A DNA stretch of 64,000 nucleotides from Candidatus Aminicenantes bacterium (lineage in GTDB: Bacteria; Acidobacteriota; Aminicenantia; UBA2199): contig WVZO01000485.1 of the NCBI GenBank assembly GCA_011772425.1, positions 40,514 to 104,513 on the forward strand, written 5' to 3'. Both the position numbers and the translations under genes were made by a program. Of the stretch, positions 1-57,420 are shown piece by piece. The notes below the pieces were generated by a model. It was given only the letters and a program-made list of their open reading frames with translations. It did no database searches and had not been told where the DNA came from. Position 1 is the stretch's first letter, and every line of letters starts with the position of its first letter.

Positions 1-292
1 TCCCGAAGTAAAGATTCCAGGATTACAATTAAAACCCTATGCCTATGAAGGCTATACATCGATGTTTGATCTGACTTTATTTGGAAATGAAACAAACCAT
101 CGATTGAATTTCTTATTCCAATACAATATAACATTATTTAAAGAGGAAACCATCAGGCGATTTGGCAATTATTTCCAGGAGATCGTATCGTCTATATTGG
201 AGAATAAAGAGGTTGAATTGGCGGACATCAAATTATCCCATGACTTTATCGCTTCAACTTCAAAGAAACCCACCATCGAGTTTTCATTTTAA
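1..292 (+). CDS. g0 (5'-truncated): 3' end of an NRPS gene, i.e. the end of a condensation (C) domain plus a C-terminal tail
   Basis: Frame 2 is open from nt 2 (PEVKIPGLQLKPYAYEGYTSMFDL...). This matches the C-terminal part of the complete C domains elsewhere in the window (compare IPGLTFKPYEFENSTSKFDL in g4). Stop TAA at 290-292. The 5' end lies outside the window. Confidence 0.85.
   Translation, partial: PEVKIPGLQLKPYAYEGYTSMFDLTLFGNETNHRLNFLFQYNITLFKEETIRRFGNYFQEIVSSILENKEVELADIKLSHDFIASTSKKPTIEFSF
272..289 (+). other. C-terminal tail of g0: TIEFSF
   Basis: Last 6 codons before TAA at 290-292. Confidence 0.6.
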
Positions 293-322: not shown

Positions 323-1070
323 ATGAAAAGTTTAAGATATTCGGAAAAGTTAAGAATTGCCGCGGACCACAATGTTAAAGAAAGAGATTATTGGTTGAAT
401 AAGCTGCAGGGTGAATTACCCCGAAGCAATTTCACCTATGACAAAAAATCAATAGAAGAATATGGTACCCAATACCACATGGATGAAATGGGATTTAAAT
501 TACCGGCAGCGCTCCAGGCGGGATTAATACGGCTGTGTAATCATTCTGATGAGGCACTCCATGTTATTTTATTAGCGGGATTGGTGATACTGCTTCATAA
601 ATATACGGATAATAATGATATCCTGCTGGCCACACCGATTTATAGAGAAGATGGCGACGGTGATTTCATAAATACCGTAATAATCATTCGAAGCCGGATC
701 ACAGTTGACATTACATTTAAAGAATTATTGCTCCAGGTAAAACAAGAGGTGACCGCAGCCAATGAAAACGCCAATTATCCCGTTGAAATATTATTCGAAC
801 AATTGGGAATGAAATCTTCCATAGAAGACGAATTTCCCCCGGACAATATTATTTTACTTGAAAATATCCATGATGAAGCATATATCCGCTATATGAATTT
901 TAACACTATTTTTTATTTTTCTAGGAATAATGAAGATATCCGGGGAGTATTGGAATATAATGTCTTATTGTACAACCAGGCCGCAGTAGAAAAAATTATC
1001 GCTCATTTCATTAATTTATTACAGGAGGCCGTCTCTTATGTAGAAATGATGGTTTCCGAGATTGGCGTAC
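323..1070 (+). other. C-half: C-terminal subdomain of a C domain at the N-terminus of g1 (no HHxxxDG lobe)
   Basis: About 250 aa lie before the A-domain leader LLFDFNDTESDYP, against ~440 aa for the complete C domains in g4. The region aligns from the ..EYWLN.F.G..P.L.LP.DYPRP.. helix onward. Confidence 0.8.
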
Positions 1071-4000
1071 TATCGCAAAGTGAAAAAAAGCAGCTCTTAT
1101 TTGATTTCAACGATACCGAAAGCGATTACCCGGGAGATAAGTGCGTCCATAATTTGTTCGAGGAGCAGGTAGAAAAAACTCCAGCCAATGCAGCAGTCGT
1201 GTATAAAGACAAGCAAATAACCTATCAGGAGTTGAATGAAAAGGCAAATCAATTGGTGAGAATTTTGAAAGAAAGAGGGGTTGAAGCAGAGAGTATTGTC
1301 GGCTTAATGGTTTTCCGCTCATTGGAAACGATAATAGGTATATTGGGCATATTAAAAGCAGGCGGTGCATATTTACCATTAGATCCCGGCTATCCAATGG
1401 AAAGGAAAAAGTATATGCTTTTGGACAGCGGTACGGAATTGGTACTCACCCAGGGACGGTTTGTCGATACGGTGGATGGTATATGTGAAGTCATTGAAAT
1501 AGACGATTCAAATTTATATTCCGGTGAGACAAAGAATTTAGAAAAGTTAAATAACTCAAAGAATTTCGCTTATGTAATATACACATCCGGTTCCACCGGA
1601 AAACCCAAAGGAGTTATAGTCGAGCACTCTCCCGTGGTTAATTTATTGACGGCATTATTTGAGGAATACGGATTTACTCGATATGACAGTTATTTACTTA
1701 AGACTTCTTACCAGTTTGATGTGTCTGTAACCGAGTTGTTTGGATGGTTTTTGGGAGGAGGCAAATTAATCGTATTGGAGCAGGAGAATGAGAAAGAGCC
1801 TCAAAAGATATTGAATGCAATTAAAGATCATAGGATAACTCATATAAATTTTGTTCCTTCTATGTTTAATGCATTTGTAGATTCCCTTAAGGATGAAAAC
1901 ATCAGTCAATTAGAACCGTTGAAATATATATTCCTGGCAGGAGAAGCTATCCTGCCGGAAATGATCAATAAATTCAGGCGGAAAGATAATCAAGTGATAA
2001 TAGAAAATTTGTATGGCCCCACAGAGGCAGCGGTCTACGCAAGCCGATTTCCATTGTCCGGTTGGAACGGTACAGGTAGTATATCCATTGGAAAGCCTTT
2101 AAAAAATGTTAAACTCTATGTTTTAAATAAGCACAAAAATTTGCAGCCAGTAGGGATAACTGGCGAATTATGTATTTCCGGGGCAGGATTAGCAAGGGGA
2201 TACCTGAACAAGCCCGAATTGACAGGAGAAAAATTTATAAGAAATCCTTTTTTTGAAGGGGAAAAATTATACAAAACCGGGGACCTTGCCCGCTGGTTTC
2301 AAGATGGCAGCCTGGAATTCCTGGGCAGGGTAGACCAACAGGTGAAAATAAGGGGATACCGTATAGAACCCGGTGAGATAGAAAGCATATTAATGGAGCA
2401 TGAGGAGATCAAAGAGGCATTGGTCAAAACCGGTGAAGATAAGCAGGGCGATTCATATCTTTGTGCGTATTTTGTCAGCCGGCAGCACTTTTCCATAGAT
2501 ATATTAAGGGAATACCTGGCAAAGAATCTGCCAGACTATATGATACCCGCTTATTTTATGCGGTTGGATAAGATACCCTTATCCCCTAACGGCAAAATCG
2601 ATAGGAAAGCGTTACCGGTTCCCAATCAAGAGCACCTGAACCGTGACCTGGAGTATGTGGGGCCCGGGAGCCCGGTAGAGGAAGCATTGGTCAACACATG
2701 GCAGCGAGTATTTGGACGCAGTCCCGTCGGTATCACAGAAAACTTTTTTATGATTGGCGGAGATTCCATCAAAGCGATTCAAATTGCTTCCCGCCTGAAT
2801 AAAATGGGATTACAATTGGAAGTGGAGCATATTTTACAGTACCCTACCATATTGCAATCGGCGCCCCAGGTGAAAAAAGTTGAGCGAATGGCATCGCAGT
2901 TGCTAATTACCGGGGAAGTTCTCCTAACCCCCATCCAGGTATGGTTCCTGGATTTTCACCACATCGCCCCCCATTATTATAACCAGGCAGTCATGCTCTA
3001 TTCAAAGGAAGGATTTAACCCGGAAGGAATCCGGGCTGTATTTCTCAAAATCTATGAGCATCACGATGCGCTGCGAATGACGTTTCAACAAAGGGATGGC
3101 GCATTTATTCAAGTAAACATGGGATTGGACCATCTGCTGGCCTTACAGGCATTTGACCTGCGGGATGTACCCCTTGCGCAGGCAGCAGCGGAAGTTGAAG
3201 CCAGGACCAATGAAATACAAGGCAGTATTGACCTGGAAAACGGTCCGCTCATGAAATTGGCTTTGTTTCACCTGGCCGATGGCGACCGTCTGTTGATAGT
3301 CATTCATCACCTGGTCATGGATGGAATATCCTGGCGAATATTGTTTGAAGATATCGACACATTATACCGGCAGTACCGGGAGGGCGGGCAATTGGTATTA
3401 CCATCCAAAACCGATTCCTTCCAGCGGTGGTCGGAACGGTTGGTTGAATACGCCAATTCAAATGAATTTTTAAAAGAGAAAGATTATTGGGCAAAGTGGG
3501 AAACACTCCCAATACCGGTAATAGAGACGGATCATGCAGAAAAAGAAAATTATTTTAAAGATTCCCGGGGCCTCTCATTCGAGTTGAATGAAGAATCAAC
3601 CGGGCACCTGTTAAAGGGCATTAACCAGGCATTTGGCACGGAAATAAAGGATATATTATTGACAGCACTGGGATTAAGCATTAAAAAATCCTTTGGCTGT
3701 CACCGCCTGTTATTGTCCCTGGAAAATCACGGCCGCGAAAAGATTATAAAGGATATCGACATAAGTAAAACCGTTGGCTGGTTTACCACTGTATACCCGC
3801 TGGTACTGGATATCGATTATGAAGATGATTTAGCTCGGCAAATCAAAGAGGTAAAGGAGCAATTACACCAGGTTCCCAATAATGGAATCGGTTATGGGAT
3901 TTTAAAATATTTAACCCGGACGGAAAACAAAAAAGATATGCATTTTCAATTGAGGCCGCAAATTATATTTAACTATTTGGGCCAGTTTTCTACGGATATT

Positions 4001-5710
4001 AAGAATATGTCCTTCTTCAGTATTGCAAAAGAATCACCTGGAAACCCTAGTAGCCCGGATGAGAAAAGATACTATGATTTGAGCATCAATGCCTTAATCA
4101 GAAGCGGTAGTTTGAGAGTATCCATTAACTTTAGCAGGAAACAATATAAACCTGGAACGATAAAAAAATTCTTAAATAATTACCAGGAGCAATTAAACCG
4201 TGTCATTTCTTTTTGTGCCGGCCGCCAAAAGAGGGAACTTACTCCCAGTGATTTAACCTATAAAGAGCTGTCTATAGAGACTGTTGATCGATTAAACCAG
4301 CAATATTTAATAGAAGATATCTATATTTTATCTCCAATGCAAGAGGGAATACTGTTTTTTGTATTATATAATAAAAACACCACTGCATATTTTGAACAGT
4401 TATCCTGTCGGATTCATGGAAAGTTAGATATATCCATCGTTAAAAAGTGTCTAAGTGATCTGGTGGGTCGATATGAAATATTGCGGACGGTATTTATTCA
4501 TGAAAACCTTAAACGTCCAGTGCAAATCGTTTTAAAAGAACGGGGCGTAGATTTCCATTATGAGGATGTTCGGGAAATGACCGGAGGTGATAGAGAGAGA
4601 TATATAATGAATTTTAAAGAGAGAGATAGACAGCGTTCATTTGATTTGACTAAAGATGTACTCATGCGTTTGACGATCCTGCGGGTAGATGAAGATGAGT
4701 ATGAGTTTGTATGGAGTTTTCATCATATATTGATGGATGGTTGGTGTACAGCGGTAGTGGTCTCAGACTTTTTTAGGATTTATATTAATTATCGGCAAAA
4801 TGGAGAGTATCAACTACCAGGGGTTAAACCATACCGGGATTATATACGATGGTTAGAAAAAAAAGATAAGGAGAAATCGAAACGCTATTGGAGAAAATAT
4901 CTGGAAAATTATAAATATCCCACGACCCTTCCCAAAAAGAAAACCATTAAAACTGCGGGGAAAGAATATATAAATGGACAGATTTCTGCTGCCCTGGATC
5001 AAGAAACAACAGGAAGTCTTAAAAAAATGGCAGGAATAAACCAGGTAACCTTGAATACGATTATGCAGGTTGCCTGGGGAATATTACTGGCAAAGTATAA
5101 TAATAAACGGGATGTTGTGTTTGGGGCAGTGGTTTCGGGTCGTCCAGCTGAAATAGAAGGTATAGAATCGATGGTAGGATTATTTATCAATACCATTCCG
5201 GTTCGAATTCGCTGTGGAGAAAATACGGGATTTATCGATATGTTGAAGTCAGCCCAGGAAGCAGTTATTGATAGTGAATCCCATTGCTATTATCCGTTAG
5301 CGGAAATACAAGCCAATACTTTATTGAAACGAAAATTATTAGACCATATCCTGGTATTCCAAAATTACCCGGTTTCCGCGCAGATAGATGGAATCATGGA
5401 TATAAGGAATAATGAAGATCAACAACAAGCAACTTTTAAATTATCCCGGGTGGAAGCTTTCGAACACAGCAATTATGATCTCATGGTGACATTCTTCCTG
5501 GATGAAAACCTGTTAAAAATAAGATTTGACTATAATATCAATACTTACGATAAAGAAAAATTAAAAAAAGTATTGAGTCATTACATTGATATCCTGGACC
5601 AGGTTAGTGAAAAACCGGGTATGAGGATAAAGGATATTTTTATAGAGAATCGATTGTTAAAAGTGGAATCAAAAGTTTTTGTTGATGAGCAAAGTGATTT
5701 TGGGTTTTAG
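323..5710 (+). CDS. g1 NRPS, domain order C-half / A / T / E / C / tail
   Basis: 1795-aa ORF. The N-terminus holds only the C-terminal half of a C domain (starts ..KERDYWLNKLQGEL.., no HHxxxDG). A cores: LKAGGAYLPLDP, YVIYTSGSTGKPKG, NLYGPTE, GELCISGAGLARGY, YKTGD, GRVDQQVKIRGYRIE, PNGKIDRKAL. T: GGDS at 2756-2767. E: HHLVMDG at 3305-3325 and FNYLGQF at ~3968-3990. C: SPMQEGILFF and HHILMDGW at 4721-4744. Ends ..VDEQSDFGF. Confidence 0.95.
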   Translation: MKSLRYSEKLRIAADHNVKERDYWLNKLQGELPRSNFTYDKKSIEEYGTQYHMDEMGFKLPAALQAGLIRLCNHSDEALHVILLAGLVILLHKYTDNNDILLATPIYREDGDGDFINTVIIIRSRITVDITFKELLLQVKQEVTAANENANYPVEILFEQLGMKSSIEDEFPPDNIILLENIHDEAYIRYMNFNTIFYFSRNNEDIRGVLEYNVLLYNQAAVEKIIAHFINLLQEAVSYVEMMVSEIGVLSQSEKKQLLFDFNDTESDYPGDKCVHNLFEEQVEKTPANAAVVYKDKQITYQELNEKANQLVRILKERGVEAESIVGLMVFRSLETIIGILGILKAGGAYLPLDPGYPMERKKYMLLDSGTELVLTQGRFVDTVDGICEVIEIDDSNLYSGETKNLEKLNNSKNFAYVIYTSGSTGKPKGVIVEHSPVVNLLTALFEEYGFTRYDSYLLKTSYQFDVSVTELFGWFLGGGKLIVLEQENEKEPQKILNAIKDHRITHINFVPSMFNAFVDSLKDENISQLEPLKYIFLAGEAILPEMINKFRRKDNQVIIENLYGPTEAAVYASRFPLSGWNGTGSISIGKPLKNVKLYVLNKHKNLQPVGITGELCISGAGLARGYLNKPELTGEKFIRNPFFEGEKLYKTGDLARWFQDGSLEFLGRVDQQVKIRGYRIEPGEIESILMEHEEIKEALVKTGEDKQGDSYLCAYFVSRQHFSIDILREYLAKNLPDYMIPAYFMRLDKIPLSPNGKIDRKALPVPNQEHLNRDLEYVGPGSPVEEALVNTWQRVFGRSPVGITENFFMIGGDSIKAIQIASRLNKMGLQLEVEHILQYPTILQSAPQVKKVERMASQLLITGEVLLTPIQVWFLDFHHIAPHYYNQAVMLYSKEGFNPEGIRAVFLKIYEHHDALRMTFQQRDGAFIQVNMGLDHLLALQAFDLRDVPLAQAAAEVEARTNEIQGSIDLENGPLMKLALFHLADGDRLLIVIHHLVMDGISWRILFEDIDTLYRQYREGGQLVLPSKTDSFQRWSERLVEYANSNEFLKEKDYWAKWETLPIPVIETDHAEKENYFKDSRGLSFELNEESTGHLLKGINQAFGTEIKDILLTALGLSIKKSFGCHRLLLSLENHGREKIIKDIDISKTVGWFTTVYPLVLDIDYEDDLARQIKEVKEQLHQVPNNGIGYGILKYLTRTENKKDMHFQLRPQIIFNYLGQFSTDIKNMSFFSIAKESPGNPSSPDEKRYYDLSINALIRSGSLRVSINFSRKQYKPGTIKKFLNNYQEQLNRVISFCAGRQKRELTPSDLTYKELSIETVDRLNQQYLIEDIYILSPMQEGILFFVLYNKNTTAYFEQLSCRIHGKLDISIVKKCLSDLVGRYEILRTVFIHENLKRPVQIVLKERGVDFHYEDVREMTGGDRERYIMNFKERDRQRSFDLTKDVLMRLTILRVDEDEYEFVWSFHHILMDGWCTAVVVSDFFRIYINYRQNGEYQLPGVKPYRDYIRWLEKKDKEKSKRYWRKYLENYKYPTTLPKKKTIKTAGKEYINGQISAALDQETTGSLKKMAGINQVTLNTIMQVAWGILLAKYNNKRDVVFGAVVSGRPAEIEGIESMVGLFINTIPVRIRCGENTGFIDMLKSAQEAVIDSESHCYYPLAEIQANTLLKRKLLDHILVFQNYPVSAQIDGIMDIRNNEDQQQATFKLSRVEAFEHSNYDLMVTFFLDENLLKIRFDYNINTYDKEKLKKVLSHYIDILDQVSEKPGMRIKDIFIENRLLKVESKVFVDEQSDFGF
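1110..2620 (+). other. g1 A domain; hand-derived 10-residue code DVTNFALVYK (no signature I recognise)
   Basis: Code read by aligning FDVSVTE.., ..ITHINFVPS.., ..IFLAGE.., NLYGPTEAAVYAS and NGK to GrsA-PheA positions 235/236/239/278/299/301/322/330/331/517. Confidence 0.6.
2900..4230 (+). other. Epimerization (E) domain of g1, motifs intact
   Basis: LTPIQVWFL.., HHLVMDGISW (3305-3325 for HHLVMDG), FNYLGQF. Confidence 0.85.
5681..5707 (+). other. C-terminal tail of g1: VDEQSDFGF
   Basis: Last 9 codons before the stop. An acidic run followed by DFGF. Confidence 0.7.
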
Positions 5711-5799: not shown

Positions 5800-7707
5800 A
5801 TGGCACAAAAAAAAAGGTTATGTACCTGTGGTAAGTCAAAGGATGGTCCCTATTGCGATCATACCCATGAACATAAGCATGAACCGGTGGAAACCGAAAC
5901 CCCCGTGGTGAAACGAAAGATTTGTACATGTGGAAAGAGCCGTACCCCACCCTACTGCGATCATTCACATAGTAATGAATGTAAAGAAGTTTTGTCAGCC
6001 ACATCATCGGAGATATCCGCCATCCCGGGTAAAATTCTCCTGCTCATGCCCCCCTATTGGGACCCCCTGATCCCCCCGCAGGGCATCGCGCACCTTAAGC
6101 ATTATTTGCAGCACCACGGCTGTAATGTAAAAACAGAAGACGCCAATACAAGAGAAGAATTCAAAGCGTTTAACAATAAATATTTTGCCCTATTAAAACA
6201 ATTTATCCCCGAACATAAGCAAGGGAACTTTCTTAATATCGGCCAGGATGTGATGCGAAATCATATACTGGCCCACATCAACTATGTGAATGAAAGAGAG
6301 TATCTCGAGCTGGTAAAAAAGATCGTGTATGAAACGTATTTTACGTCTCTTAGTGATGAGCAGGCCAGGGAACTCAAAAAATTAATGGATGATTTTTTGT
6401 TATTGATGCGAAATTATATGCTGCATTTATTCATAACGGAAAAGCCCGATGTTTTGGGGTTAACCGTGCTTAGGGATACCATAGGACCGGCTTTATATGC
6501 CTTCAGGTTTACCAAAGAAAAGTATCCCTTTATCATGACCGTAATGGGAGGTAGTATATTTTCCGATCACCTGCTCCCCGGAACCCCGAATTTTGAACAT
6601 TTTTTAGAGAAGACCCCCTTTATCGACAAGATCATAATCGGGGAAGGCCAGGAATTGTTTTTAAAGTTATTACAGGGCCGGCTGCCGGAATCCCAGCGAG
6701 TATTTACCTTAGAAGATAACGACGGTAAGATATTAAGCTATACGCCATTGAATTTCCCGGACCTGACGGATTTTGACCTGGACGAGGATTATCCTTACCT
6801 GGCGGCGCAGGTATCTTTTAGTTGTCCACACCAGTGCAGTTTTTGCAACGTGGTCTCTTATTTTGGAAAATACAGGTCCAAGGGGGCAACGCAGGCAGTG
6901 AACGAGATGCTGGTACAGCATATGAAATACGGATCGCAATTGTTTTTTATGAACGATTCCCTGCTCAACGAAGCCGCAACCGGTCTTTCGCAAGAGTTGT
7001 TAAAATACCCCACAGTGTTATACTGGGATGGTTATTTAAGGGTAGACGGTGCGGTATGCGACCCCGACGTTACCCTGCTCTGGAGGCGGGCCGGGTTTTA
7101 CCGGGCACGGCTGGGAATCGAAAGCGGTTCGCAGCGCGTACTGGACCTGATTCATAAAGGCATAACAGTGGATCAAATAAAAACGGCATTAATCTCCCTC
7201 GCCAATGCCGGGATAAAAACCACCGCCTATTGGGTTATCGGACACCCCGGGGAAACCGAAGAGGATTTTTTACAAACGTTAGAACTCCTGGGGGAAATCA
7301 AAAATTATATTTATGAAGCCGAATGCAACGCCTTTATCTATGGCTTTAGCGGGCAGGGGAATTCCGAAGAATGGAAAAATAAGCGAAAACTGCTCTATCC
7401 CGAAGAAGCAAAAGATATGCTGATCGTGCAATCATGGATCGTCGATACGGAACCTTCCAGGGCAGAAACCTATGAACGGACCAACCGGTTCGTTAAACGC
7501 TGCAAAGAGTTGGGTATTCCCAACCCCTATTCATTGTACGATATTCATAAAGCAGATGAACGATGGAGGAAACTCCACAAAAATGCGGTCCCCCCACTGG
7601 CATATTTCAAAAAGCAGGACGCTTATATTGATGAGTGTCGAAATGTAAAGAAAGTCATACAAATACAAACCAATCTCCAGGATGACGGGGATTTTGGTTT
7701 TCAATAA
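5800..7707 (+). CDS. g2 stand-alone enzyme: 2 x CDGSH-type Fe-S motif / B12-binding-like domain / radical SAM domain / acidic tail
   Basis: 635-aa ORF with AAGGAGG 6 nt upstream. CTCGKSKDGPYCDHTH at 5821-5868 and CTCGKSRTPPYCDHSH at 5923-5970. Rossmann-like KILLLMPPYWDPLIPPQGIAHL..PDVLGLTV..MGGSIF..KIIIGEGQELF. rSAM cluster motif CPHQCSFC at 6823-6846, then ..RLGIESGSQRVL... Ends ..LQDDGDFGFQ. Confidence 0.9.
   Translation: MAQKKRLCTCGKSKDGPYCDHTHEHKHEPVETETPVVKRKICTCGKSRTPPYCDHSHSNECKEVLSATSSEISAIPGKILLLMPPYWDPLIPPQGIAHLKHYLQHHGCNVKTEDANTREEFKAFNNKYFALLKQFIPEHKQGNFLNIGQDVMRNHILAHINYVNEREYLELVKKIVYETYFTSLSDEQARELKKLMDDFLLLMRNYMLHLFITEKPDVLGLTVLRDTIGPALYAFRFTKEKYPFIMTVMGGSIFSDHLLPGTPNFEHFLEKTPFIDKIIIGEGQELFLKLLQGRLPESQRVFTLEDNDGKILSYTPLNFPDLTDFDLDEDYPYLAAQVSFSCPHQCSFCNVVSYFGKYRSKGATQAVNEMLVQHMKYGSQLFFMNDSLLNEAATGLSQELLKYPTVLYWDGYLRVDGAVCDPDVTLLWRRAGFYRARLGIESGSQRVLDLIHKGITVDQIKTALISLANAGIKTTAYWVIGHPGETEEDFLQTLELLGEIKNYIYEAECNAFIYGFSGQGNSEEWKNKRKLLYPEEAKDMLIVQSWIVDTEPSRAETYERTNRFVKRCKELGIPNPYSLYDIHKADERWRKLHKNAVPPLAYFKKQDAYIDECRNVKKVIQIQTNLQDDGDFGFQ
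5821..5868 (+). other. CDGSH-type [2Fe-2S] motif, copy 1 (variant CDHTH)
   Basis: C-T-C-GKSKDGPY-C-DHT-H shows the exact C-x-C-x8-C-x3-H ligand spacing, plus the conserved Ser and Pro of the CDGSH signature. Gly is replaced by His. Confidence 0.7.
5923..5970 (+). other. CDGSH-type [2Fe-2S] motif, copy 2 (variant CDHSH)
   Basis: C-T-C-GKSRTPPY-C-DHS-H, with the same spacing, 34 aa after copy 1. Confidence 0.7.
7675..7704 (+). other. C-terminal tail of g2 (free rSAM): LQDDGDFGFQ
   Basis: Last 10 codons before the stop. The same DFGF core as g1 and g6. Confidence 0.7.
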
Positions 7708-7720: not shown

Positions 7721-8470
7721 GTGGAATACATAAAAACGCCCGAAGCAGCAGCCATTGCTGCCAATCAATCATTAAAAGAAAGAAAGTATTGGCAGGAAAG
7801 ATTATCCGGTCAATTGGTAAAAACCGCTTTTCCCACAGACTATAAAAAACCCGGAAAAAAAGGCCGGGAATCACTTCATTTTACCCTTACCGGCGAACTA
7901 TTTTCAAATTTAATGAAATTAAGAAACGGCAGTGATCATCGAATGTTGATGATTTTTGCGGCCGGATTGGTGGCATTGCTGGGGAAATATACGGGGAATA
8001 AAGATATTCTTTTAGGCATACCTGTGGATCGGCAGTCGATTGAAGGTGAGTTTATCAATCGAGCATTGGTATTGAGGAATGTCATTGAAGACACTATGAC
8101 CTTCAGAGAATTGCTATTGCAAGTAAGACAGACCGTTGTCGAGGCAATTGAAAATCAAAATTATCCCATTGAAATCCTATTGGATGACCTGGGATTCGAA
8201 GTTGCCGGCAGTGAAGAGGGATTTCCACTATTTGATATTGCCGTGGTGATTGAGAATATTCATGACAAATCATATATTCAACACATTAATATGAGTATGG
8301 TATTCTTTTTTTCAAGGACAGAACAATGTGTGAAGGGTGTACTGGAATTTGATTCGTCATTGTACAAACATACAACGATAGAGCGGATCGTTGACCATTT
8401 TACTCATTTACTAAAACAAGTGCTTGCAAACGTCCATTGCCAGATATCCGATGTAGACATTCTTTCAGAG
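7721..8470 (+). other. C-half at the N-terminus of g3
   Basis: ..AAIAANQSLKERKYWQERLSGQL.. through ..ILSEEEKEQVLFDFNHT. Same length and layout as the g1 C-half, with no His motif. Confidence 0.8.
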
Positions 8471-10432
8471 GAAGAGAAAGAACAGGTGTTATTTGATTTT
8501 AATCATACCGACATAGTCTATCCAGAGGATAAAAAACTGCATGAGCTATTTGAGGACCAGGTAGAAAAAGCACCGGATCGTATTGCCGTCATATTTGAAG
8601 ATAAATTCTTAACCTATAACCAATTGAACCGGAAGGCGAATCGATTGGGACGGCTATTGAGATCAAAAGGTGTAACGTATGATACGATAGTAGGGATAAT
8701 GCTGGAATCTTCGTTAGAGATGATCATCGGAGCCCTTGGGGTTTTAAAGGCAGGGGGAACGTATCTTCCAATCGGGCTTGATTTTCCGGAAAGCAGGATA
8801 AATTTTATTTTGAATGACAGCGGCGTAGATATCCTGGTAAATAATGGGAATCGGGGCTTTGAAGGATTTATCTCAACAGTCATCGACATTTATGATGATG
8901 CAATCGATCCGGAAGACCACCGGGATCTTGAAATTGAAATGAAAAATGCGAATAAAACCACCCATGCCGCGTATGTTATATTTACCTCCGGTACAACGGG
9001 AAAACCCAAAGGTGTTATCGTGGAGCACAGAAGTGTAGTAAATACCCTTTTTTGCCGGAAAGAAGAATATAAGATGAATCCGGAAATTACTACTTTGCAA
9101 TTGTTTTCATTCACCTTTGATGGTTTTATTACAAGTTTTTTTACTCCCATCATTTCAGGTGCAAAAATTGTGCTCCTGAGTGAAATTGGAATGAAAGATA
9201 TAATAAAGATAAAAAATGCCCTCACATGTCACCAGGTCAATCATTTTATTAGTGTTCCCTCCCTATATCACGTCATAGTTGAGAGTCTTACTAGAGAAGA
9301 GGCCTCTTCATTAAAGATTGTTACGCTGGCGGGAGATCATGTATCGCCAAATATATTGGAAACAACAAAAGATAAAAACCCGAAAATCGAAATAGTGAAT
9401 GAGTACGGAATTACCGAAGCAGCGGTAATGTCAACCATTTACAGGCACCAGGAAAAAGAGACTCAAATAAAGATAGGAGAGCCCATAGGAAATACTAGGA
9501 TTTATATAATAGATGGACATTATCATTTGCAGCCGATTGGAGTCCCCGGAGAATTATGTATTGCCGGTGTTGGCCTGGCACGGGGATATTTAAACAAACC
9601 GGAATTGACAACGGAAAAGTTTGGAAAAGCTGTCATTAGTCATTTGTCATTAGAGACTGGTTCTTTTTATAGCTCTCAAAAAACCAATGACCGGTGTCCA
9701 ATGATCAATGCCAAACTGTATCGGTCCGGTGACCTGGCCCGGTGGCTTCCTGACGGAAACATCGAATTTTTAGGCAGGAAGGATTACCAGATTAAAATAA
9801 GGGGTTACCGGATCGAATTGGGGGAGATAGAAAATCAACTGCGAACCTATGATCCGATAAAAGAAGCTGTTGTTTTAGCAAAAGAAAACAATCAAGGAGA
9901 AAAATATCTGTATGCTTTCCTCTTGACCGATAACGAAAGCAATATAAAAATTGATGTTTCTGCCCTCAGACAATATTTATCCAAGAAATTACCTGATTAT
10001 ATGATTCCCGCATATTTTCTAGAAATCGATCAAATACCCTTAACTCCCAATGGCAAAATTGATAACAGAACGCTGTTGAATCTTAATGAAGTGATTGCTG
10101 AAGCAGAATATGTAGAACCTCGAAACGAAACCGAAGAGAAACTGGTTCAAATTTGGAAGAATCTACTGGACACCCAAAGGATTGGCATAAAAGATAATTT
10201 TTTTAATATTGGTGGAGATTCGATAAAATCTATACGGTTAATGAACTTAATAAATGAAGAATTCAATAAGAAATTTGAATTGGCAGATATCTATGAAAAT
10301 GAGACCATTGAAAAACTTGCAGAAAAGGTACAATTGATACAGGATAAGGAGATGATAGATTCCTCTGATAAATATAAAGAGTCTTTAGAAAGAATGGAAG
10401 AAGTAAAAAGCAAATTTATGAAGGAGATTTAA
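7721..10432 (+). CDS. g3 NRPS, C-half / A / T
   Basis: The ORF track starts at ATG 7682, inside g2. I prefer the in-frame GTG 7721, which has GAGGTGA at 7709-7715 and lies after the g2 stop at 7707. The N-terminus ..SLKERKYWQERLSGQL.. is only the C-terminal half of a C domain. A cores: LKAGGTYLPIG, YVIFTSGTTGKPKG, NEYGITE, GELCIAGVGLARGY, YRSGD, PNGKIDNRTL. T: GGDS at 10211-10222. Ends ..MEEVKSKFMKEI, with no DF-type tail. Confidence 0.9.
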   Translation: MEYIKTPEAAAIAANQSLKERKYWQERLSGQLVKTAFPTDYKKPGKKGRESLHFTLTGELFSNLMKLRNGSDHRMLMIFAAGLVALLGKYTGNKDILLGIPVDRQSIEGEFINRALVLRNVIEDTMTFRELLLQVRQTVVEAIENQNYPIEILLDDLGFEVAGSEEGFPLFDIAVVIENIHDKSYIQHINMSMVFFFSRTEQCVKGVLEFDSSLYKHTTIERIVDHFTHLLKQVLANVHCQISDVDILSEEEKEQVLFDFNHTDIVYPEDKKLHELFEDQVEKAPDRIAVIFEDKFLTYNQLNRKANRLGRLLRSKGVTYDTIVGIMLESSLEMIIGALGVLKAGGTYLPIGLDFPESRINFILNDSGVDILVNNGNRGFEGFISTVIDIYDDAIDPEDHRDLEIEMKNANKTTHAAYVIFTSGTTGKPKGVIVEHRSVVNTLFCRKEEYKMNPEITTLQLFSFTFDGFITSFFTPIISGAKIVLLSEIGMKDIIKIKNALTCHQVNHFISVPSLYHVIVESLTREEASSLKIVTLAGDHVSPNILETTKDKNPKIEIVNEYGITEAAVMSTIYRHQEKETQIKIGEPIGNTRIYIIDGHYHLQPIGVPGELCIAGVGLARGYLNKPELTTEKFGKAVISHLSLETGSFYSSQKTNDRCPMINAKLYRSGDLARWLPDGNIEFLGRKDYQIKIRGYRIELGEIENQLRTYDPIKEAVVLAKENNQGEKYLYAFLLTDNESNIKIDVSALRQYLSKKLPDYMIPAYFLEIDQIPLTPNGKIDNRTLLNLNEVIAEAEYVEPRNETEEKLVQIWKNLLDTQRIGIKDNFFNIGGDSIKSIRLMNLINEEFNKKFELADIYENETIEKLAEKVQLIQDKEMIDSSDKYKESLERMEEVKSKFMKEI
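8500..10075 (+). other. g3 A domain; code DGTITAEVMK (9/10 to the Tyr signature DGTITAEVAK as I recall it)
   Basis: FDGFITS.., ..VNHFISVPS.., ..VTLAGD.., NEYGITEAAVMST, NGK. Confidence 0.6.
9632..9652 (+). repeat. In-frame tandem heptamer GTCATT[A/T] x 3 in the A6-A7 loop of the g3 A domain
   Basis: gtcatta gtcattt gtcatta, followed by the direct repeat CCAATGA at 9684-9690 and 9698-9704. The loop is ~32 aa here, against ~12 aa in g1. Confidence 0.7.
10421..10426 (+). promoter_or_regulatory. Shine-Dalgarno site of g4, inside the 3' end of g3 (translational coupling)
   Basis: AAGGAG, 7 nt before ATG 10434. The g3 stop is at 10430-10432. Confidence 0.75.
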
Positions 10433-31100: not shown

Positions 31101-34100
31101 TATTATTCGAGCTGCCCAAATGTTTCGTAAAATAAATAATCGTGAATATACCATCAATCCCGCGGATGATAACCAGTATGAAAAACTATTTAGCAATATC
31201 AGGGAGGAAAAAGGAGTTTTCCCGGGAAAAATGATTCATTTATGGAATGTTACCACAAAAAAAACTGATGATTTAAATTTAGAGTCAATTGACTCGTTGT
31301 TGGATTTGGGATATTACTGTTTATTGAACATTGCCCGGGCAATAGGCAAACTGAATATCGAGGATGATATTGACATTACAGTGGTAACCAACAACATGCA
31401 AGAAGTGGTTGGCCAAGATCAACGATGTCCTGAAAAGGCAACATTGCTGGGACCGGTGAAAACTATTCCCAAAGAATACGGTAATATATCTTTACGCAGC
31501 ATAGATATCCGTCTTCCCCAAACGGGCAGGGAAGAGGAAGAAAAATTAATAGAGTGTCTAATCAAAGAATTTTTTAGCAAAGACCATGAACCGGTGATAG
31601 CATTTCGCAATCATTTTCGCTGGATACAAACCTATGAACCCGTACGGCTGGAAAAGTCGGAAAGTGAGACATGGCGTTTAAAAGACGGAGGGATTTACCT
31701 GGTCACCGGGGGGCTGGGAGGTATCGGTTATGTATTGGCCCAACAAATAGTAAGGAGTGTTAGAAATCCAAAACTCATATTGACTGGCCGGACAAAACTT
31801 CCCGAACCAGGGAAATGGGATCAATGGCTAGAGGACCACGACGAAGAAGATAGTATCAGTGCGAAAATAACCAAAGTAAGGGGTCTTGAAGGAATGGGCG
31901 CCAAGGTTTTAGTCGTCAGTGGGGAAAATTCCAATCTAGAACAAATGCAGCAGGTTATTTCCCGGGCAGAAGAACAGTTTGGGCCGATTAATGGGGTTGT
32001 ACACTCGGCCGGACTCCCGGATGGCGCCATGATCCAGGTCAGGACCCGGGAGCAGTCTGAGATAGTGTTTTCTTCTAAACTAAAAGGCACATTAATTTTG
32101 GCTATGCTTCTAAAGCATGTTAAACTTGATTTTTTCGTCCTTTGTTCTTCAATCGATTCAATAATGTCCAATGCAGGTCATGTGGGTTATTGTTCAGCCA
32201 ACTCCTTTCTTAATGCGTTTGCCACTTACAAGTTTAATAAAGATAAAGTATTTACCACTGCTATTAGCTGGCCTCGGTGGCAGAGTCTGGGCATGGCAGT
32301 TATCCAGGAGAACCTGCATAAGGAGTTGAAAGGTTATGATTTATCAGGAGGCTTAGAGATTGAAGATGGCATAGATGCCTTTAGTCGCATCCTGGGCGAA
32401 AATCTACCTCAAGTGGCGGTAACCAGTAATGATCTGGGCCGCGCCTATGAACGCGATAAAACCGTTGGAACGGAAGCCTTTATGGCAGAATTCGATGCCG
32501 CTGACGATGCCCCTGAAAATTTATTCCAACGCCCGGATTTGACGTCCGAGTATGTGGCCCCCCAAAATGAAACCCAACAATCACTGGCACGAATCTGGCA
32601 GACGTTATTTGGCATTGAAAAAATCGGTATCCAGGATGACTTCTTCGAATTGGGAGGCGATTCTTTAAAAGTTGTCATTACCATATCTAAAATTCACAAA
32701 GAATTAGATGTAGAGATACCCGTATCGGAATTTTTTAACACACCCAACATCCAGGACCTGGCTAAATATATGACCGGTGATATTAGTAAGGATAAAGAGA
32801 GTACGTATTTATCAATAGAGCCGGGAGAGAAAAAAGAATTCTACCCCCTGTCATCGGCTCAAAAAAGATTTTATATCATCCAACAATTGGATGTGCATAG
32901 TATCGTTTTCAATAATCCAAGAGTTGTAGTATTACAGGGTGAATTGCTGAAAGATAAGCTGGAAGGAGCAATTAAGCAATTGATCCAATGTCATGAAATA
33001 TTAAGGTCTTCCTTTGAAATTTTTGACAAGGAGCCTGTCCAAAGGATCAATGAAACCTTTGATTTTGCTATTGAATATCATGAACTTCCAGAGGAGGAAA
33101 CCCGGCAATTGATAGAAACATTTGTAAAACCCTTTGACCTGGCAAAGGTCCCGTTATTCAGGGTATGTCTTGTTAAAGTCGGGGGGGGAGAGCAAATCTT
33201 GATGTTTGACATGCACCATATTATTACCGATTTATATTCTCGCACCATATTTATTAGAGAATGTCTGCAGGTATATAATGGACTGGAACAGCCCTTGTTA
33301 CGCCTACAGTATAAAGATTTTTGCCAATGGCAGCACGATATGTTAGTATCCGGTCGGTTAAAAAAACAAGAAGAGTACTGGGTGGAACATTTTTCCGGGG
33401 AACTCCCGGTACTGGAACTATCCACCGATTACCCGAGACCGGAAGTCCATTCTTTTGAGGGTACAGCCCTGGTGTTCTCTTTGCAAGGTGAGGTCATGCG
33501 GAAACTGAATACTTTGATGAAGAAAACCGGGACAACGTTATTCATGATGATCCTGGCCTTGTATAATATATTATTAAGTAAGTACAGCGGACAATCAGAT
33601 ATAATCATCGGAGCACCAGTAGCCGGCAGAAGCCATGCAAACCTGGAAAATATGATGGGCCTGTTAATCGAAACAATTGTCATAAGAAATTACCCGGACC
33701 CTGATCAAACATTCGTGAAATTCTTGGAGGAAGTAAAAAACAATTCCTTAGAGGCCTTTGACAACCAGTCATATCCCTTTGGGGAGTTGTTGAAACATTT
33801 GGGCCCTCAACACGATCAGAGTCGGAATCCCCTGTTTGATGCCATGTTAATGGTGCAAAATGTGGAACAACTACCCGAGGAAGCCAAAAAAGAAGAATTA
33901 AGCATTGCTCCCTATAAGTATGAACCTCACGATATGTCAAAAGTTGATATCACATTTGAGGTAGAACCCGTAGACGGAGGGAATGGACTGCTTTTTAAAG
34001 TGGAATATTGTACCAGGTTATTTAAAGAAGAAACCATGGAGAGATTTACACATTTCTTTATTGAGATCGTATCTACTGTGGTGGATAACCCGACGATTAA

Positions 34101-34185
34101 ATTGAAAGATATTAAGATGTCTCATGTCGTTAGCGCTGCTGAGGCAGATGTTTTTGAAGATGATGGGACCGATTTCGGTTTTTAG
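28162..34185 (+). CDS. g6 hybrid PKS/NRPS, KS / AT / KR / carrier / C / tail
   Basis: 2007-aa ORF. KS Cys codon at 28708-28710, HGTATHIGD, NIGHLDTAAG. AT GYSFGE at 30091-30108 and ASRAIHS. KR GGIYLVTGGLGGIG and ..GHVGYCSANSF. PCP-like carrier GGDS at 32653-32664. C domain YPLSSAQKRFY.. with HHIITDL at 33214-33234. Ends ..FEDDGTDFGF. Confidence 0.95.
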   Translation: MNTKGDRKQTGLEIAVIGMAGRFPGATNLEEFWNNLKDGIESIAFFGDEELKEAGVGSSFLKDPNYVKANGELQDKDHFDNSFFGYSPKEAEIMDPQIRVFHECAWEVLEEAGYVPDSYNGLIGIYAGGSDNFSWRALEALKGLGTDLGTFGRSILNIGFYLSTRVSHKLNLKGPSLTFFNACSTSLVAIHLACRALLMGECDMALAGGVSITNHTKRGYTYEEGMIMSPDGHCRTFDTNACGSVYGEGVGIVALKRFKEAIKDGDTIHAVIKGSAVNNDGINKASFTAPGPGIASIVKKALKVAHVNTEDISYVEAHGTATHIGDTLEVKALKQAFNSDVKGYCRIGSVKTNIGHLDTAAGVAAFIKTILALEHKAIPPSLHFKKPNPDIDFENSPFVVNTELSEWRNGNGKGPLIAGVNGFGIGGTNVFVVLEEAPEIESSPEEEKECSEWKIILLSARSEPALNKTTENFKEYLESNPNVNFADVVYTLQVGRKAFQYRRMLVCSSIKEAIEVLSTPASRKIKTFLSRVENREIIFMFSGLGSQYVNMGLELYQKERIFRQELDRCLEILEPLMGYDIKEILYPGLHTPTASHPSVSRRDSNPTVADINQAEITQPIIFIFEYALAKLLMKWGIKPQAMIGYSFGEYVAAAVSGVFSLEDALKMVVLRGRLIQEVSPGAMLSVPLSCEEVTPDLPDELSLAIDNGSSCVVAGPDAAVADFEHQMKEKKVLCMRLKASRAIHSKMMGAILAEFQEICRQVTLNKPQIPYISNVTGTWISDEEAVSPVHWAKHLRETVRFADGIKELTRKTGAIFVEIGPGRDLSALLMRYIDNNSDQHALSLVRQPEQDISDVYFLMSKLGQLWLYGREIDWREFYGEEKRHRIPLPTYPFQRQQFCIEGDPFQMAQQMLSEGSPNAQKLEVSDWFYVPSWKRTPAISQRESENSDQTMPADCLVFMDEDNWGKTLVKQLENKHQDVTIIRAAQMFRKINNREYTINPADDNQYEKLFSNIREEKGVFPGKMIHLWNVTTKKTDDLNLESIDSLLDLGYYCLLNIARAIGKLNIEDDIDITVVTNNMQEVVGQDQRCPEKATLLGPVKTIPKEYGNISLRSIDIRLPQTGREEEEKLIECLIKEFFSKDHEPVIAFRNHFRWIQTYEPVRLEKSESETWRLKDGGIYLVTGGLGGIGYVLAQQIVRSVRNPKLILTGRTKLPEPGKWDQWLEDHDEEDSISAKITKVRGLEGMGAKVLVVSGENSNLEQMQQVISRAEEQFGPINGVVHSAGLPDGAMIQVRTREQSEIVFSSKLKGTLILAMLLKHVKLDFFVLCSSIDSIMSNAGHVGYCSANSFLNAFATYKFNKDKVFTTAISWPRWQSLGMAVIQENLHKELKGYDLSGGLEIEDGIDAFSRILGENLPQVAVTSNDLGRAYERDKTVGTEAFMAEFDAADDAPENLFQRPDLTSEYVAPQNETQQSLARIWQTLFGIEKIGIQDDFFELGGDSLKVVITISKIHKELDVEIPVSEFFNTPNIQDLAKYMTGDISKDKESTYLSIEPGEKKEFYPLSSAQKRFYIIQQLDVHSIVFNNPRVVVLQGELLKDKLEGAIKQLIQCHEILRSSFEIFDKEPVQRINETFDFAIEYHELPEEETRQLIETFVKPFDLAKVPLFRVCLVKVGGGEQILMFDMHHIITDLYSRTIFIRECLQVYNGLEQPLLRLQYKDFCQWQHDMLVSGRLKKQEEYWVEHFSGELPVLELSTDYPRPEVHSFEGTALVFSLQGEVMRKLNTLMKKTGTTLFMMILALYNILLSKYSGQSDIIIGAPVAGRSHANLENMMGLLIETIVIRNYPDPDQTFVKFLEEVKNNSLEAFDNQSYPFGELLKHLGPQHDQSRNPLFDAMLMVQNVEQLPEEAKKEELSIAPYKYEPHDMSKVDITFEVEPVDGGNGLLFKVEYCTRLFKEETMERFTHFFIEIVSTVVDNPTIKLKDIKMSHVVSAAEADVFEDDGTDFGF
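34153..34182 (+). other. C-terminal tail of g6: FEDDGTDFGF
   Basis: Last 10 codons before the stop. Confidence 0.7.
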
Positions 34186-34228: not shown

Positions 34229-35560
34229 ATGAACATAGAAGGAAAATTAAAAAACGACTTTGGGCCGTCGGAGAAGAAAGATTATTATGAGTTATCTTCG
34301 GCCCAGAAGAGATTTTACATTTTACATCAAATGGAGCCGCAGTGTACTAAATATAATATATCGACCCTGTCTGTACTGGAAGGCGAACTGGACCTGGAAT
34401 TATTGGAAAACATATTCCAGAGACTAATAAACAGGCACGAAAGTTTAAGAACCTCATTTATCCTGGTAGAAGGTAAACCGGTCCAGAAAATTTATAAACA
34501 TGTGGAATTTAAGATCGAGTATGATGAAGCAGATAGACCTGAAGAAGCAATATTAAAAGATTTTGTACGACCTTTTGATTTATCCCGTCCCCCCTTACTG
34601 AGGGTGAGATTGAGCAAGATAAATGAAAAGAAACACCTTCTTATATTCGATATGCATCAAATCACAGCAGATGCAGCATCTCAAGTACTACTGAAGAAAG
34701 AATTGATGGCATTATATGCCGGCAAGGAACTTGAGTCTTCAAGCATTCAATACAAAGATTATGCGGAATGGCAGAAACATATAAAACAAGAAGATTGGCT
34801 AAAAAGCCAGGAAGAGTATTGGTTAAACATGATTGCTGGAAAAATCTCCGTACTGAATCTTCCTACCGATTATTTGAGACCTGCAATTCAGAGTTTTGAA
34901 GGTGATTCATCAGGTTTTGAAATAAGCAGCGAAGAGACGACCGCCTTAAAAACACTGGCACTGGAACAAGAGACCACATTGTATGTGGTTTTCCTGGCAA
35001 TTTTTAATGTTTTCTTGAGCATTGTAAGCAACCAGGAAACGATCAGAGTCGGAACACCGGTGTCTGGTCGAATTGATAAGGATATAGAAAATGTCCTCGG
35101 GGTGCTTGAGAATAAACTCGTATTAGTTAATGATCCGGTTGGTGAAAAAACCTTTATAGAGTTTTTGGGAGAGGTAAAAAAGAAAACCTTAGAGGTATTT
35201 ACAAACCAGGATTATCCATATGAAGACCTGGTGGATAAAGTTGCAGCCGACACCGATATGAGCCGTAATCCTCTATTCGATATTATGTACGAATTTATGG
35301 AGTCTGATTATGAGATTCCGGAAATGGAGATATCATCGTTGAAGTTAAGACGTTATAAATATGGGAACGAGATAGGGACCACTGGTTTAGATTTGACTTT
35401 ACGAGGATTTGAGGAAGGAGATCGTCTGTTTTTTACTTTTGAATTCTGCACGAAGGTTTATAAAGAAGAAACGATCAAACGATTTATCGCTTATTTTAAA
35501 AGAATTGTATCGTCCATAATCACAGAGCCATTGCAAAAAATTGGGGCGATTGAGATTCTA
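34229..35560 (+). other. C*: full-length C-like domain at the N-terminus of g7 whose catalytic motif reads HQITAD instead of HHxxxDG
   Basis: YYELSSAQKRFYILHQ...LLIFDMHQITADAAS. The second His is replaced by CAA (Gln) at 34658-34660, and the Gly after Asp is replaced by Ala. Confidence 0.8.
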
Positions 35561-43590: not shown

Positions 43591-44320
43591 ATGAATAGAA
43601 ATGTTCTTATTCCTATAGATGGGTTTGAAAATGAAAAGATATATTGGTTGAACAAATTGTCCGGAGAATTAAGTGAAGTAAAGTTAGTGGCCGATTTCCC
43701 AGGGAAGGAATGCTGCAGAACAGCAAATTATAAACTATTATTTGAAAAAGAAATAACACAACACTTAATCCGTATAAGTAAGAATAATGATTTGTCTTTT
43801 TTTGTGATTCTATTGACCTCTTTTAAGATACTGCTTTTTAAATATACCCAGCAGAATGAAATTATCGTCGCATCTCCAACTTATAGTAAAAGCAATCAGA
43901 AGTATAATCGAAATGTAGTGTTTAGAGATTTTATATACCCGGAAATGACCTTTAAGGAAATATTATTGAAAGTTAAACAAACTGTAGGGGAAGGATATAG
44001 AAACCAGTATTTTCCCATTAGACGATTAATCGATTTATTGGATGTAGGAGATACGTTATCATTATTCCGGGTCATTGTATTATTGGAGAATATTCATGAC
44101 AAAGAATCCGTGGATGAGATTACAAGGGATTTTGAGAATGATATTACCCTTTCCTTTCGAAGAACTGGCGAAGAATTGGAAGCCAATGTAATCTACAATT
44201 CAAGTTTGTTTAAGGAGGAAACGGTACAAAGGTTATTTGTTAGTTTTCAGCATGTTTTGATTCAAATATCGGGGAATACCGATATTGAAGTAAAGAACAT
44301 TGAAACGATTCCCAGGGAAG
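43591..44320 (+). other. C-half at the N-terminus of g9
   Basis: MNRNVLIPIDGFENEKIYWLNKLSGEL.. through ..IETIPREVTNEILHEFNKT, with no His motif. Confidence 0.8.
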
Positions 44321-56729: not shown

Positions 56730-57420
56730 ATGGATAACAAAAAGACAAAATTCATTGAAGAGTATTGGTTAAAGCAATTGGATGGAGAATTGCTCGGAGT
56801 TTCTCTCCCATTGGTAAAGGGGGAGCAATATGCTCACGAAGTGCATCCGCAACTAGAAATTTCCGGCGAAATATACACAAAACTGAAAAAAATTGCCAGA
56901 GGTTCGGATGTCGCATTATTTATATTGTTTCTAAGCGCTCTCAATGTGGTTATACATAAATATACAGGAGCCGAAGACCTTGTGGTGGGGACGATACCGC
57001 CGAAGGATAGAGGATTAAAAGAAGAGATAGTACTATGCAGAAATCGGATTACGGGTGATCTAACCTTTAAAGAGTTTGTAACTCACGTCAAGGAAGTTGT
57101 ACTGAAAGCCTTTAACCATGCAGAATATTCTTTTAAGGATATCTATAATAAATTATGTATTAACAAGGGAGTAGAATCATTCGATATATTTAATATTGCG
57201 TTTATTTACGACAAATTCCAGGATAGGGGTAGATTTCCGCTGGCATTTGATTTGCTGATTGTCTTATCTGAGCTGGGGGATCAAGGGGTTATGGAGGTAG
57301 AATATAATACCCAACTTTATTCCGGTGAAATTGTGAATCGGTTCCTCAGGCACATCATTGCTATTTTTGATGATATTTCAGGCAACCTGGAAATGAAAAT
57401 TACGGAAATAGAAATGCTGA
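56730..57420 (+). other. C-half at the N-terminus of g10
   Basis: MDNKKTKFIEEYWLKQLDGEL.. through ..IEMLTSQERKQVLYEFNDT, with no His motif. Confidence 0.8.

Follow-up and report, generated by a model that had tools for sequence, protein, structure and literature searches.

What does a nonribosomal peptide synthetase (NRPS) gain from beginning with half a condensation (C) domain? The question is raised by a 64,000-nucleotide window (the whole stretch of DNA analyzed here; positions 40514–104513 of contig C47, WVZO01000485.1) from the draft genome of a Candidatus Aminicenantes bacterium (10.4 Mb in 768 contigs). Four of its synthetases, g1, g3, g9, and g10, open with only the C-terminal lobe (C-lobe) of such a domain ahead of their first adenylation (A) domain. 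Judged by their sequences, these half-domains, hereafter C*, are a single old monophyletic family, fused through a normal C–A linker to the first A domain of the subunit. They are of the known C*/ADA kind, systematically used here at elongation junctions split between C and A (C|A). In the explanation that we consider best, and probable, C* keeps the C-lobe:A platform at these split junctions.

How much of the C domain is left? We ran hmmscan against Pfam (reporting E ≤ 1) on the first 259–290 amino acids of the four proteins. The sole match at each N-terminus is PF00668 (Condensation), and only the C-lobe part of it:

323..1099, plus strand: C* of g1; PF00668 over amino acids 12–259, profile positions 186–456 of 456, E 1e-25
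7721..8488, plus strand: C* of g3; PF00668 profile positions 185–455 of 456, E 3e-31
43591..44334, plus strand: C* of g9; PF00668 profile positions 191–455 of 456, E 3e-23
56730..57443, plus strand: C* of g10; PF00668 profile positions 195–455 of 456, E 5e-25

In g1, the half-domain runs into the canonical C–A linker (LLFDFNDTESDYP) and then the A domain; half-C, linker, and PF00501 are directly contiguous in all four proteins. Alignment with the window's 14 full C and epimerization (E) domains places the beginning of the half-domains at the K/ExYWLxxLxGxL helix, right after motif C4, and everything N-terminal of this helix, HHxxxDG included, is missing from all four. When the g3 half-domain is compared with C domains in the PDB by phmmer, only C-terminal halves match (e.g., 2jgp residues 271–520). 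The N-lobe with HHxxxDG that characterizes catalytic LCL and DCL C domains is thus absent as a whole, and for this reason the half-domains cannot be catalysts; it is the complete C domain of the preceding subunit that has an intact His motif. On both points, a C-lobe only and no catalysis, the original prediction made from this DNA was right.

Could the missing lobe be hidden upstream of the annotated starts? Good Shine–Dalgarno sites precede all four genes, which start at ATG 323 (g1), GTG 7721 behind GAGGTGA (g3), ATG 43591 behind AGGAGG (g9), and ATG 56730 behind AGAGGGA (g10). The g1 start lies 30 nt past the stop (290–292) of a 2387-amino acid upstream synthetase, and the starts of g3, g9, and g10 follow the stops of g2, g8, and g9 by 13, 19, and 80 nt, respectively. 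Because the starts lie only 13–80 nt behind the preceding gene's stop, there is no room for an N-lobe. A hidden Markov model (HMM) of the N-lobe, built from the window's full C domains, found no match in any of three frames within the 900 nt upstream of each start (best 2.0 bits), such as an N-lobe concealed by a missed start or a frameshift would have given. Upstream of g1 and g10, a C-lobe HMM matched the last part of the complete C domain that closes the preceding subunit.

Are the four half-domains separate accidents or members of one lineage? The genome contains 63 N-terminal half-C starts. In a tree built from all of its C-lobes (350 sequences), 53 of 59 N-terminal half-Cs form one pure clade (support 0.905); of the six outside it, five belong to open reading frames (ORFs) truncated at the end of a contig, and the last has no evident explanation. 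Relative to the genome's full C domains and TycC (2jgp), the whole clade has lost ~5 amino acids ahead of motif C5 and ~11–15 amino acids past motif C7, the latter at what appears to be the position of the latch that reaches to the N-lobe in canonical C domains. The canonical C-lobe motifs C5–C7 are still conserved, and new family-specific residues are 80–94% conserved. The His of ENIHD is present in 91% of C* vs. 1% of full C domains, and the Lys of TFKELL in 94% vs. 13%. Pairwise identity among the window's four half-domains is 23–41%, which together with the C-lobe tree rules out independent recent truncations. The original prediction had counted four independent truncations; what emerges instead is one old monophyletic family, recognizable by its pure clade, shared deletions, and own residues.

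How far does this family extend? A profile of the four half-domains was searched against 1.84 billion representative proteins and matched C domains of all kinds; the domain stands at the very start of 52 of the 150 top-scoring proteins, which have the N-terminal signature ..IAAxQxxKE(R/K)xYWLxKLSGxLxKSxFPYD in common. Relatives of the g3 half-domain with 40–55% identity come from metagenome-assembled genomes (MAGs) of Aminicenantes, Acidobacteriota, Omnitrophota, Deferrimicrobium, Clostridia/Bacillota, Bacteroidales, and KSB1, spanning at least seven phylum-level groups, and its close relatives also include one record labeled Bacillus cereus. This survey of orthologues found the same N-terminus in many independent assemblies, and an assembly or annotation error is therefore disfavored.

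What might a lone C-lobe do for the A domain behind it? AlphaFold models the g1 half-domain as two helices followed by a C-lobe, with a predicted local distance difference test score (pLDDT) that stays >90 throughout. The PDB structures most similar to it in Foldseek are NRPS C domains, with template modeling (TM) scores of 0.6–0.71 by query and 0.43–0.46 by target against isolated C domains. About half of each solved domain is thus covered, and the predicted structure, like the profile match, contains only the C-lobe. The half-domain and A domain modeled together (795 residues) form what is predicted to be one rigid unit (mean pLDDT 89.9, predicted TM score 0.88, linker pLDDT ~98), in keeping with the proposal that the half-domain is kept as a structural partner of the A domain. 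With both domains superposed, this model matches EntF (5t3d) with a TM score of 0.82 and a root mean square deviation of 4.6 over 796 columns, and other C–A didomains with scores of 0.76 (Txo1, 6oyf) and 0.76–0.77 (LgrA); scores against A-domain-only PDB entries are ~0.5–0.58. Because the superposition on solved C–A didomains extends across both domains, the canonical C-lobe:A interface is predicted to be kept. Among the genome's 273 A domains, 186 stand behind a full C domain and 63 behind an ORF-opening half-C, so that 91% have a C-lobe in front; C* is present on 63 of the 77 subunit-opening A domains.

Which proteins precede C*? All four half-domains follow a synthetase that ends in a complete C domain, as had been noticed at the outset: the upstream 2387-amino acid ORF (o08) before g1, g1 before g3, g7 before g9, and g9 before g10. 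These C-ends, together with that of g6, are as follows (T, thiolation domain):

2..292, plus strand: last 96 codons and stop of o08 (2387 amino acids, C*-A-T-C-A-T-C), from the contig ORF map, phmmer, and the C-lobe HMM; end of a complete terminal C domain with tail ..TIEFSF (EFSF = 278–289); partner of g1
4313..5707, plus strand: terminal complete C domain of g1 (HHILMDGW, behind an E domain) with tail ..QSDFGF (DFGF = 5696–5707), from PF00668 (amino acids 1331–1773, profile positions 2–445) and alignment; partner of g3
32959..34182, plus strand: terminal complete C domain of g6 (MHHIITD) with tail ..GTDFGF, from phmmer and alignment
40463..41881, plus strand: terminal complete C domain of g7 (HHILMDGW, behind an E domain) with tail ..IQIDFDI, from phmmer and alignment; partner of g9
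55300..56646, plus strand: terminal complete C domain of g9 (MHHIITDG) with tail ..EDVGFDF, from phmmer, the C-lobe HMM, and alignment; partner of g10

The pairing holds across the genome. We classified all adjacent same-strand NRPS ORFs and found that, behind an upstream ORF with a terminal C domain (n = 57), the next subunit begins with a half-C in 44 cases, a full C in 6, and something else in 7; behind ORFs with other ends (n = 37), the corresponding counts are 3, 10, and 24 (44/57 vs. 3/37 for the half-C; Fisher's exact p = 2.4e-11). Most C-ends carry a short tail, [D/E]-F-x-[F/L/I], whose first position is sometimes another residue and which aligns where the C–A linker (FNDTxxxYP) ends. 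A survey of other species with a four-sequence alignment gave 33 loci. Six of them were set aside as ordinary full C domains (28–31% identity; Bacillus albus, B. swezeyi, B. sonorensis, and others), leaving 27 N-terminal half-Cs, and the tail is found on one or two upstream ORFs in 21 of the 26 interpretable loci. Two subunits of the Aminicenantes genome, C384:31019 and C702:14914, lie behind a tail-bearing C domain yet start with linker and A domain without C*. C* also heads the first NRPS gene, without a tagged partner, in L003/L012; first NRPS genes headed by C* are those of one Omnitrophota locus and of one Clostridia locus whose sole upstream ORF encodes 188 amino acids ending in ..NFGFD. 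The presence of C* on first genes without a tagged partner is in keeping with a function that concerns the A domain as such.

Some junctions are built differently. The end of g6 (34182) is the window's only tail-bearing C-end that is followed by a full-length C domain rather than by a half-C:

34280..35542, plus strand: N-terminal full-length C domain of g7, motif MHQITAD, from alignment and motif scan

The second, catalytic His of this domain is replaced by Gln, and judging by the motif it probably takes the place of a half-C at the g6–g7 junction as a full-size but equally dead domain. At one other junction in the genome where a tail-bearing C-end meets a full-length C domain (contig C98), HHxxxDG is intact. 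There are also stand-alone C-domain proteins of ~490 amino acids with the tail, at C384:29496–30992 (..IQFGF) and L002:12661–14124 (..IDFNF); they sit between a T-terminated subunit and the next subunit, the C domain of the module being a separate protein.

What else is encoded at these junctions? Two of those in the window hold a free tailoring enzyme whose C-terminus resembles the tails of the C-ends:

5800..7707, plus strand: g2, free B12-type radical S-adenosylmethionine (SAM) protein with two CDGSH motifs, ending ..GDFGFQ (Pfam, NCBIfam), encoded between the C-end of g1 and the half-C of g3
41874..43571, plus strand: g8, free PhpK-family B12 radical SAM protein, ending ..LIIDFEL (NCBIfam TIGR04479, 652.6 bits vs. 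a cut-off of 600), encoded between the C-end of g7 and the half-C of g9

The cut-off that g8 passes is that for PhpK-family radical SAM P-methyltransferases, although the window shows no sign of phosphonate or phosphinate genes; in its NRPS context, g8 is probably a C-methyltransferase. The genome has 21 free B12 radical SAM ORFs next to NRPS genes; every one of them lies at a C-end/half-C junction, nearly all with the tail, and the 15 radical SAM homologues elsewhere in the genome have none. A minimal two-module junction is found in L001:3652–13418 (a Logan contig of SRR35203686; NCBI protein name, Bacillus cereus NRPS), in the order C-A-T-C (..DDGDFNFN), B12 radical SAM (..DEGDFAFI), C*-A-T, and free thioesterase. 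Because its closest relatives are all anaerobe MAGs, this locus may represent a horizontal transfer or a mislabeled record. In L002:455–12658 (JGI metagenome contig Ga0675941_000049), four consecutive proteins directly upstream of a C*-A-T gene end in GDFGF(E): a polyketide synthase (PKS) ending in C, a radical SAM protein, a 100-amino acid CDGSH protein, and a 406-amino acid protein of the Peptidase_U32 family. Among U32 relatives are oxygen-independent hydroxylases, and the one in L002 may be an anaerobic on-line hydroxylase.

What reads the tail? In two minus-strand regions, the C-end and the radical SAM protein of a junction both carry Trp variants of the tail: C521 (27759–34232; C-end ..GDWELE, radical SAM ..GEEWL) and C682 (9729–14783; C-end ..EEEWNM, radical SAM ..DSEWL). 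This coincidence in their motifs suggests that both tails of a junction are read by one site. No C*-A columns co-varying with W- vs. F-type tails were found, with only two W-type junctions usable. g1 shares its reading frame with the gene upstream, and we tethered the last 25 residues of the upstream protein through an 11-residue linker to g1, reading three intervening stops as Gly. AlphaFold models of this construct yield pLDDT and secondary structure but no contacts. Tethered to the half-C alone, the tail has pLDDT 39–49 and no secondary structure. With the A domain present, residues 19–26 exceed pLDDT 50 and residues 21–26 reach ~75 (estimated from block means), and the tail F-S-F is assigned as a three-residue strand, a weak hint that strand addition of the tail may need the A domain. 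The tether signals are weak in both directions, because no contacts are given and a short tether may hold the tail off its true site. Together with the C*-less exceptions, the models make C* alone a less likely landing pad than the C*-A platform.

Have comparable domains been described? In ACVS module 1 (C*) and in Lys2/NPS3 (ADA), a half-size C-like domain stands before the A domain, and its deletion cripples adenylation (PMC7884236, citing Kalb et al. 2015). The half-domains studied here share with these their relation to C domains, their length (~230–300 amino acids, about half size), their place directly N-terminal to A, and the lack of HHxxxDG. All four also match the Lys2 model TIGR03443 (positions 2–221 or 42–235) with E 6e-12 to 1e-15, in local matches that lie, as expected, far below the whole-protein cut-off. 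Unlike the ACVS and Lys2 domains, which sit in initiation modules or stand-alone reductases, the window's four head elongation modules and come with a tail-bearing partner and tagged tailoring enzymes; the adenylation requirement, shown for ACVS and NPS3, would apply to C* here by analogy. The starter module of ThdA is depicted with a truncated C* (PMC7253712), and in McyB the C-terminal subdomain by itself is reported to reshape A-domain specificity (PMC11546977, citing Meyer 2016). The literature mentions a "truncated C-domain" in polymyxin PmxA1 in passing; by that description alone it is similar, being a truncated, presumably inactive C before the first A of a subunit. No Paenibacillus protein, and so neither PmxA nor PmxB, appeared among the half-C relatives in a word-indexed database search.

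Do systems that recruit trans-acting enzymes offer a closer parallel? X-domains and interface domains resemble C* as noncatalytic members of the C superfamily in NRPSs that are associated with trans tailoring enzymes on carrier-bound substrates. The interface domain is full-length, and Reitz et al. are said to have reported in 2019 that such domains recruit siderophore β-hydroxylases. Interface domains accompany siderophore β-hydroxylases (PMC12230676). The X-domain of glycopeptide NRPSs has both lobes of the C fold, at full length, and a mutated motif (PMC6565677). C* consists of a single lobe; the N-terminal HQxxxD domain of g7 better fits the description of a two-lobe C fold with a degenerate site. 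The X-domain binds the body of the P450 (PxDD motif) and not a C-terminal tail; several enzymes share its one site and take turns, as has been shown for that domain. Pairs of a short linear motif (SLiM) and a β-hairpin docking domain (TubC, EpoB, rhabdopeptide, enacyloxin) join a carrier protein to a C or heterocyclization (Cy) domain bearing a β-hairpin domain of ~50 amino acids (summarized in PMC13324335). They too have a short C-terminal motif on the upstream protein, and the predicted F-x-F strand resembles strand addition. The junction here, in contrast, is C|A, and in the N-terminal 259–290 amino acids of the four proteins Pfam (E ≤ 1) finds only Condensation and no β-hairpin docking domain. 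A full-text literature search found no description of these domains as one family, of the C-end/half-C rule, or of a tie to tail-bearing tailoring enzymes.

How, then, might a split junction work? By analogy with the ACVS C*, the Lys2-type ADA, and the McyB C-lobe, C* most likely preserves the usual C-lobe:A-domain platform, stabilizing or activating the A domain, and this structural partnership is its best-supported function. One module would be split over two proteins, with the working C domain at the end of the preceding protein and C*-A-T downstream; this C domain would act in trans, condensing onto the amino acid that is loaded on C*-A-T. Because the free tailoring enzymes at the split junction carry the same tail as the C-ends, the junction is probably a shared site, where C domain and tailoring enzymes would take turns on the aminoacyl-carrier; the candidate tag carriers are B12 radical SAM proteins and, elsewhere, also the CDGSH protein and the U32-family protein. 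Several points weigh against this explanation. A structural-partner role leaves the precise siting of tagged enzymes at these junctions unexplained, and the effect of C* on its A domain is argued wholly by analogy. Twelve A domains open an ORF without any C-lobe, and C* is thus not indispensable, although some of the 12 may be draft-assembly frameshift artefacts. Comparison of A domains behind C* with those behind a full C domain revealed no class-specific residues in their first 230 amino acids (highest Jensen–Shannon divergence ~0.15, with differences confined to the end of the C-lobe), and therefore no special co-adaptation is visible.

Would another role account for C* better? C* might itself be the receptor on which the upstream C domain and the trans enzymes land with their [D/E]-F-x-F tails. 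Its main role would then be docking, like that of the X-domain for P450s or the interface domains for β-hydroxylases. No other domain is specific to these junctions, and C* is very strongly associated with tail-bearing upstream proteins; four different proteins with GDFGF ends lie directly upstream of a single C*-A-T gene in L002, and the family-specific His and Lys beside the deleted latch could form a new binding surface. In the models, however, the tail is disordered on C* alone and gains order only with the A domain; C384:31019 and C702:14914 follow a tail-bearing C domain without having C*, first genes have C* without a tagged partner, and no C* residue co-varies with the W-type tails (two cases). 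We consider this role unlikely. For the docking platform of the original prediction, the signs are mixed: the tie to tail-bearing upstream proteins is strong, whereas the disordered tail and the two C*-less subunits speak against docking on the half-domain alone. In a broader reading, which is less likely than not, on-line tailoring in anaerobes would generally rely on a tag-and-hub system centered on C*-A. The deliberate splitting of the module would let the upstream C and a changing set of enzymes compete for one C*-A site. A [D/E]-F-x-F-tagged B12 radical SAM protein, a U32-type putative anaerobic hydroxylase, and a CDGSH iron-sulfur protein would alternate on the aminoacyl-carrier, and the tagged enzymes might fill the space vacated by the lost N-lobe.

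Could C* have no function, or not be real? It might be a mere scar, left where a C domain was broken by recombination or gene fission and persisting only because nothing selects for its loss. This would agree with the alignment of the tail with the end of the C–A linker, which suggests fission at the C|A border, and recombination points within C domains are known from NRPS evolution and engineering (the XUC concept). A functionless remnant is very improbable, however, for a domain of single origin that has kept 40–55% identity across many phyla, conserved C5–C7, acquired conserved residues of its own, and is predicted to fold with confidence; the trimming of the latch that would touch the missing lobe indicates adaptation to life without the N-lobe. 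An artefact of annotation or assembly, with the N-lobe hidden by a frameshift or missed start, might be suspected in a draft of 768 contigs in which some NRPS ORFs are clearly frameshift-broken (negative gaps, X runs). It is effectively refuted by the lack of an N-lobe signal in the 900 nt upstream, by upstream DNA that is taken up by other complete genes, by the strong ribosome-binding sites ahead of the starts, and by the recurrence of the same N-terminus in dozens of independent assemblies. Preservation of the C-lobe:A platform remains the explanation that we prefer.

How are the half-domains placed within the assembly line? The window is filled with ten co-directional genes of a single NRPS/PKS line, and the cluster extends beyond both window ends. 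Mapped by phmmer with the window's own domains as queries, the order of domains is:

g1: half-C, A, T, E, C
g2: free B12 radical SAM protein
g3: half-C, A, T
g4: four C-A-T modules
g5: PKS
g6: PKS with a C domain at its end
g7: C, A (with a radical SAM insert), T, E, C
g8: free radical SAM protein
g9: half-C, A, T ... C
g10: half-C, A, T ...

Across the whole contig, the same map gives a half-C as the start of seven subunits. Residues ~2416–3875 of g9 (window ~50800–55000) contain two successive A domains; neither a T nor a C domain was detected between these, and a radical SAM-like insert interrupts the second. The NRPS load of the genome is unusually heavy (~195 NRPS ORFs and 273 A domains); many of these ORFs are broken by frameshifts or N runs, and the bin may be fragmented or mixed.

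What do these half-domains mean for the assembly lines that contain them? C domains of half size that open an NRPS protein are usually written off as inactive remnants. This family instead marks a specific cut of the assembly line between C and A, with the active C domain upstream and a copy of the C-lobe staying with the A domain. It offers a simple rule for subunit order and module boundaries in many clusters of this type from uncultured anaerobes. It also points to a split site and a tag, both of natural origin, that could be used to engineer multi-protein NRPSs. The two-module cluster labeled Bacillus cereus (C-A-T-C, radical SAM, C*-A-T, thioesterase) would be a tractable test system. If C*-A did prove to be a hub for tagged enzymes, it would be a tail-based counterpart of the X-domain/P450 system across at least seven phylum-level groups. 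The junctions themselves would be where trans-acting radical SAM enzymes, and possibly anaerobic hydroxylases, meet carrier-bound amino acids.

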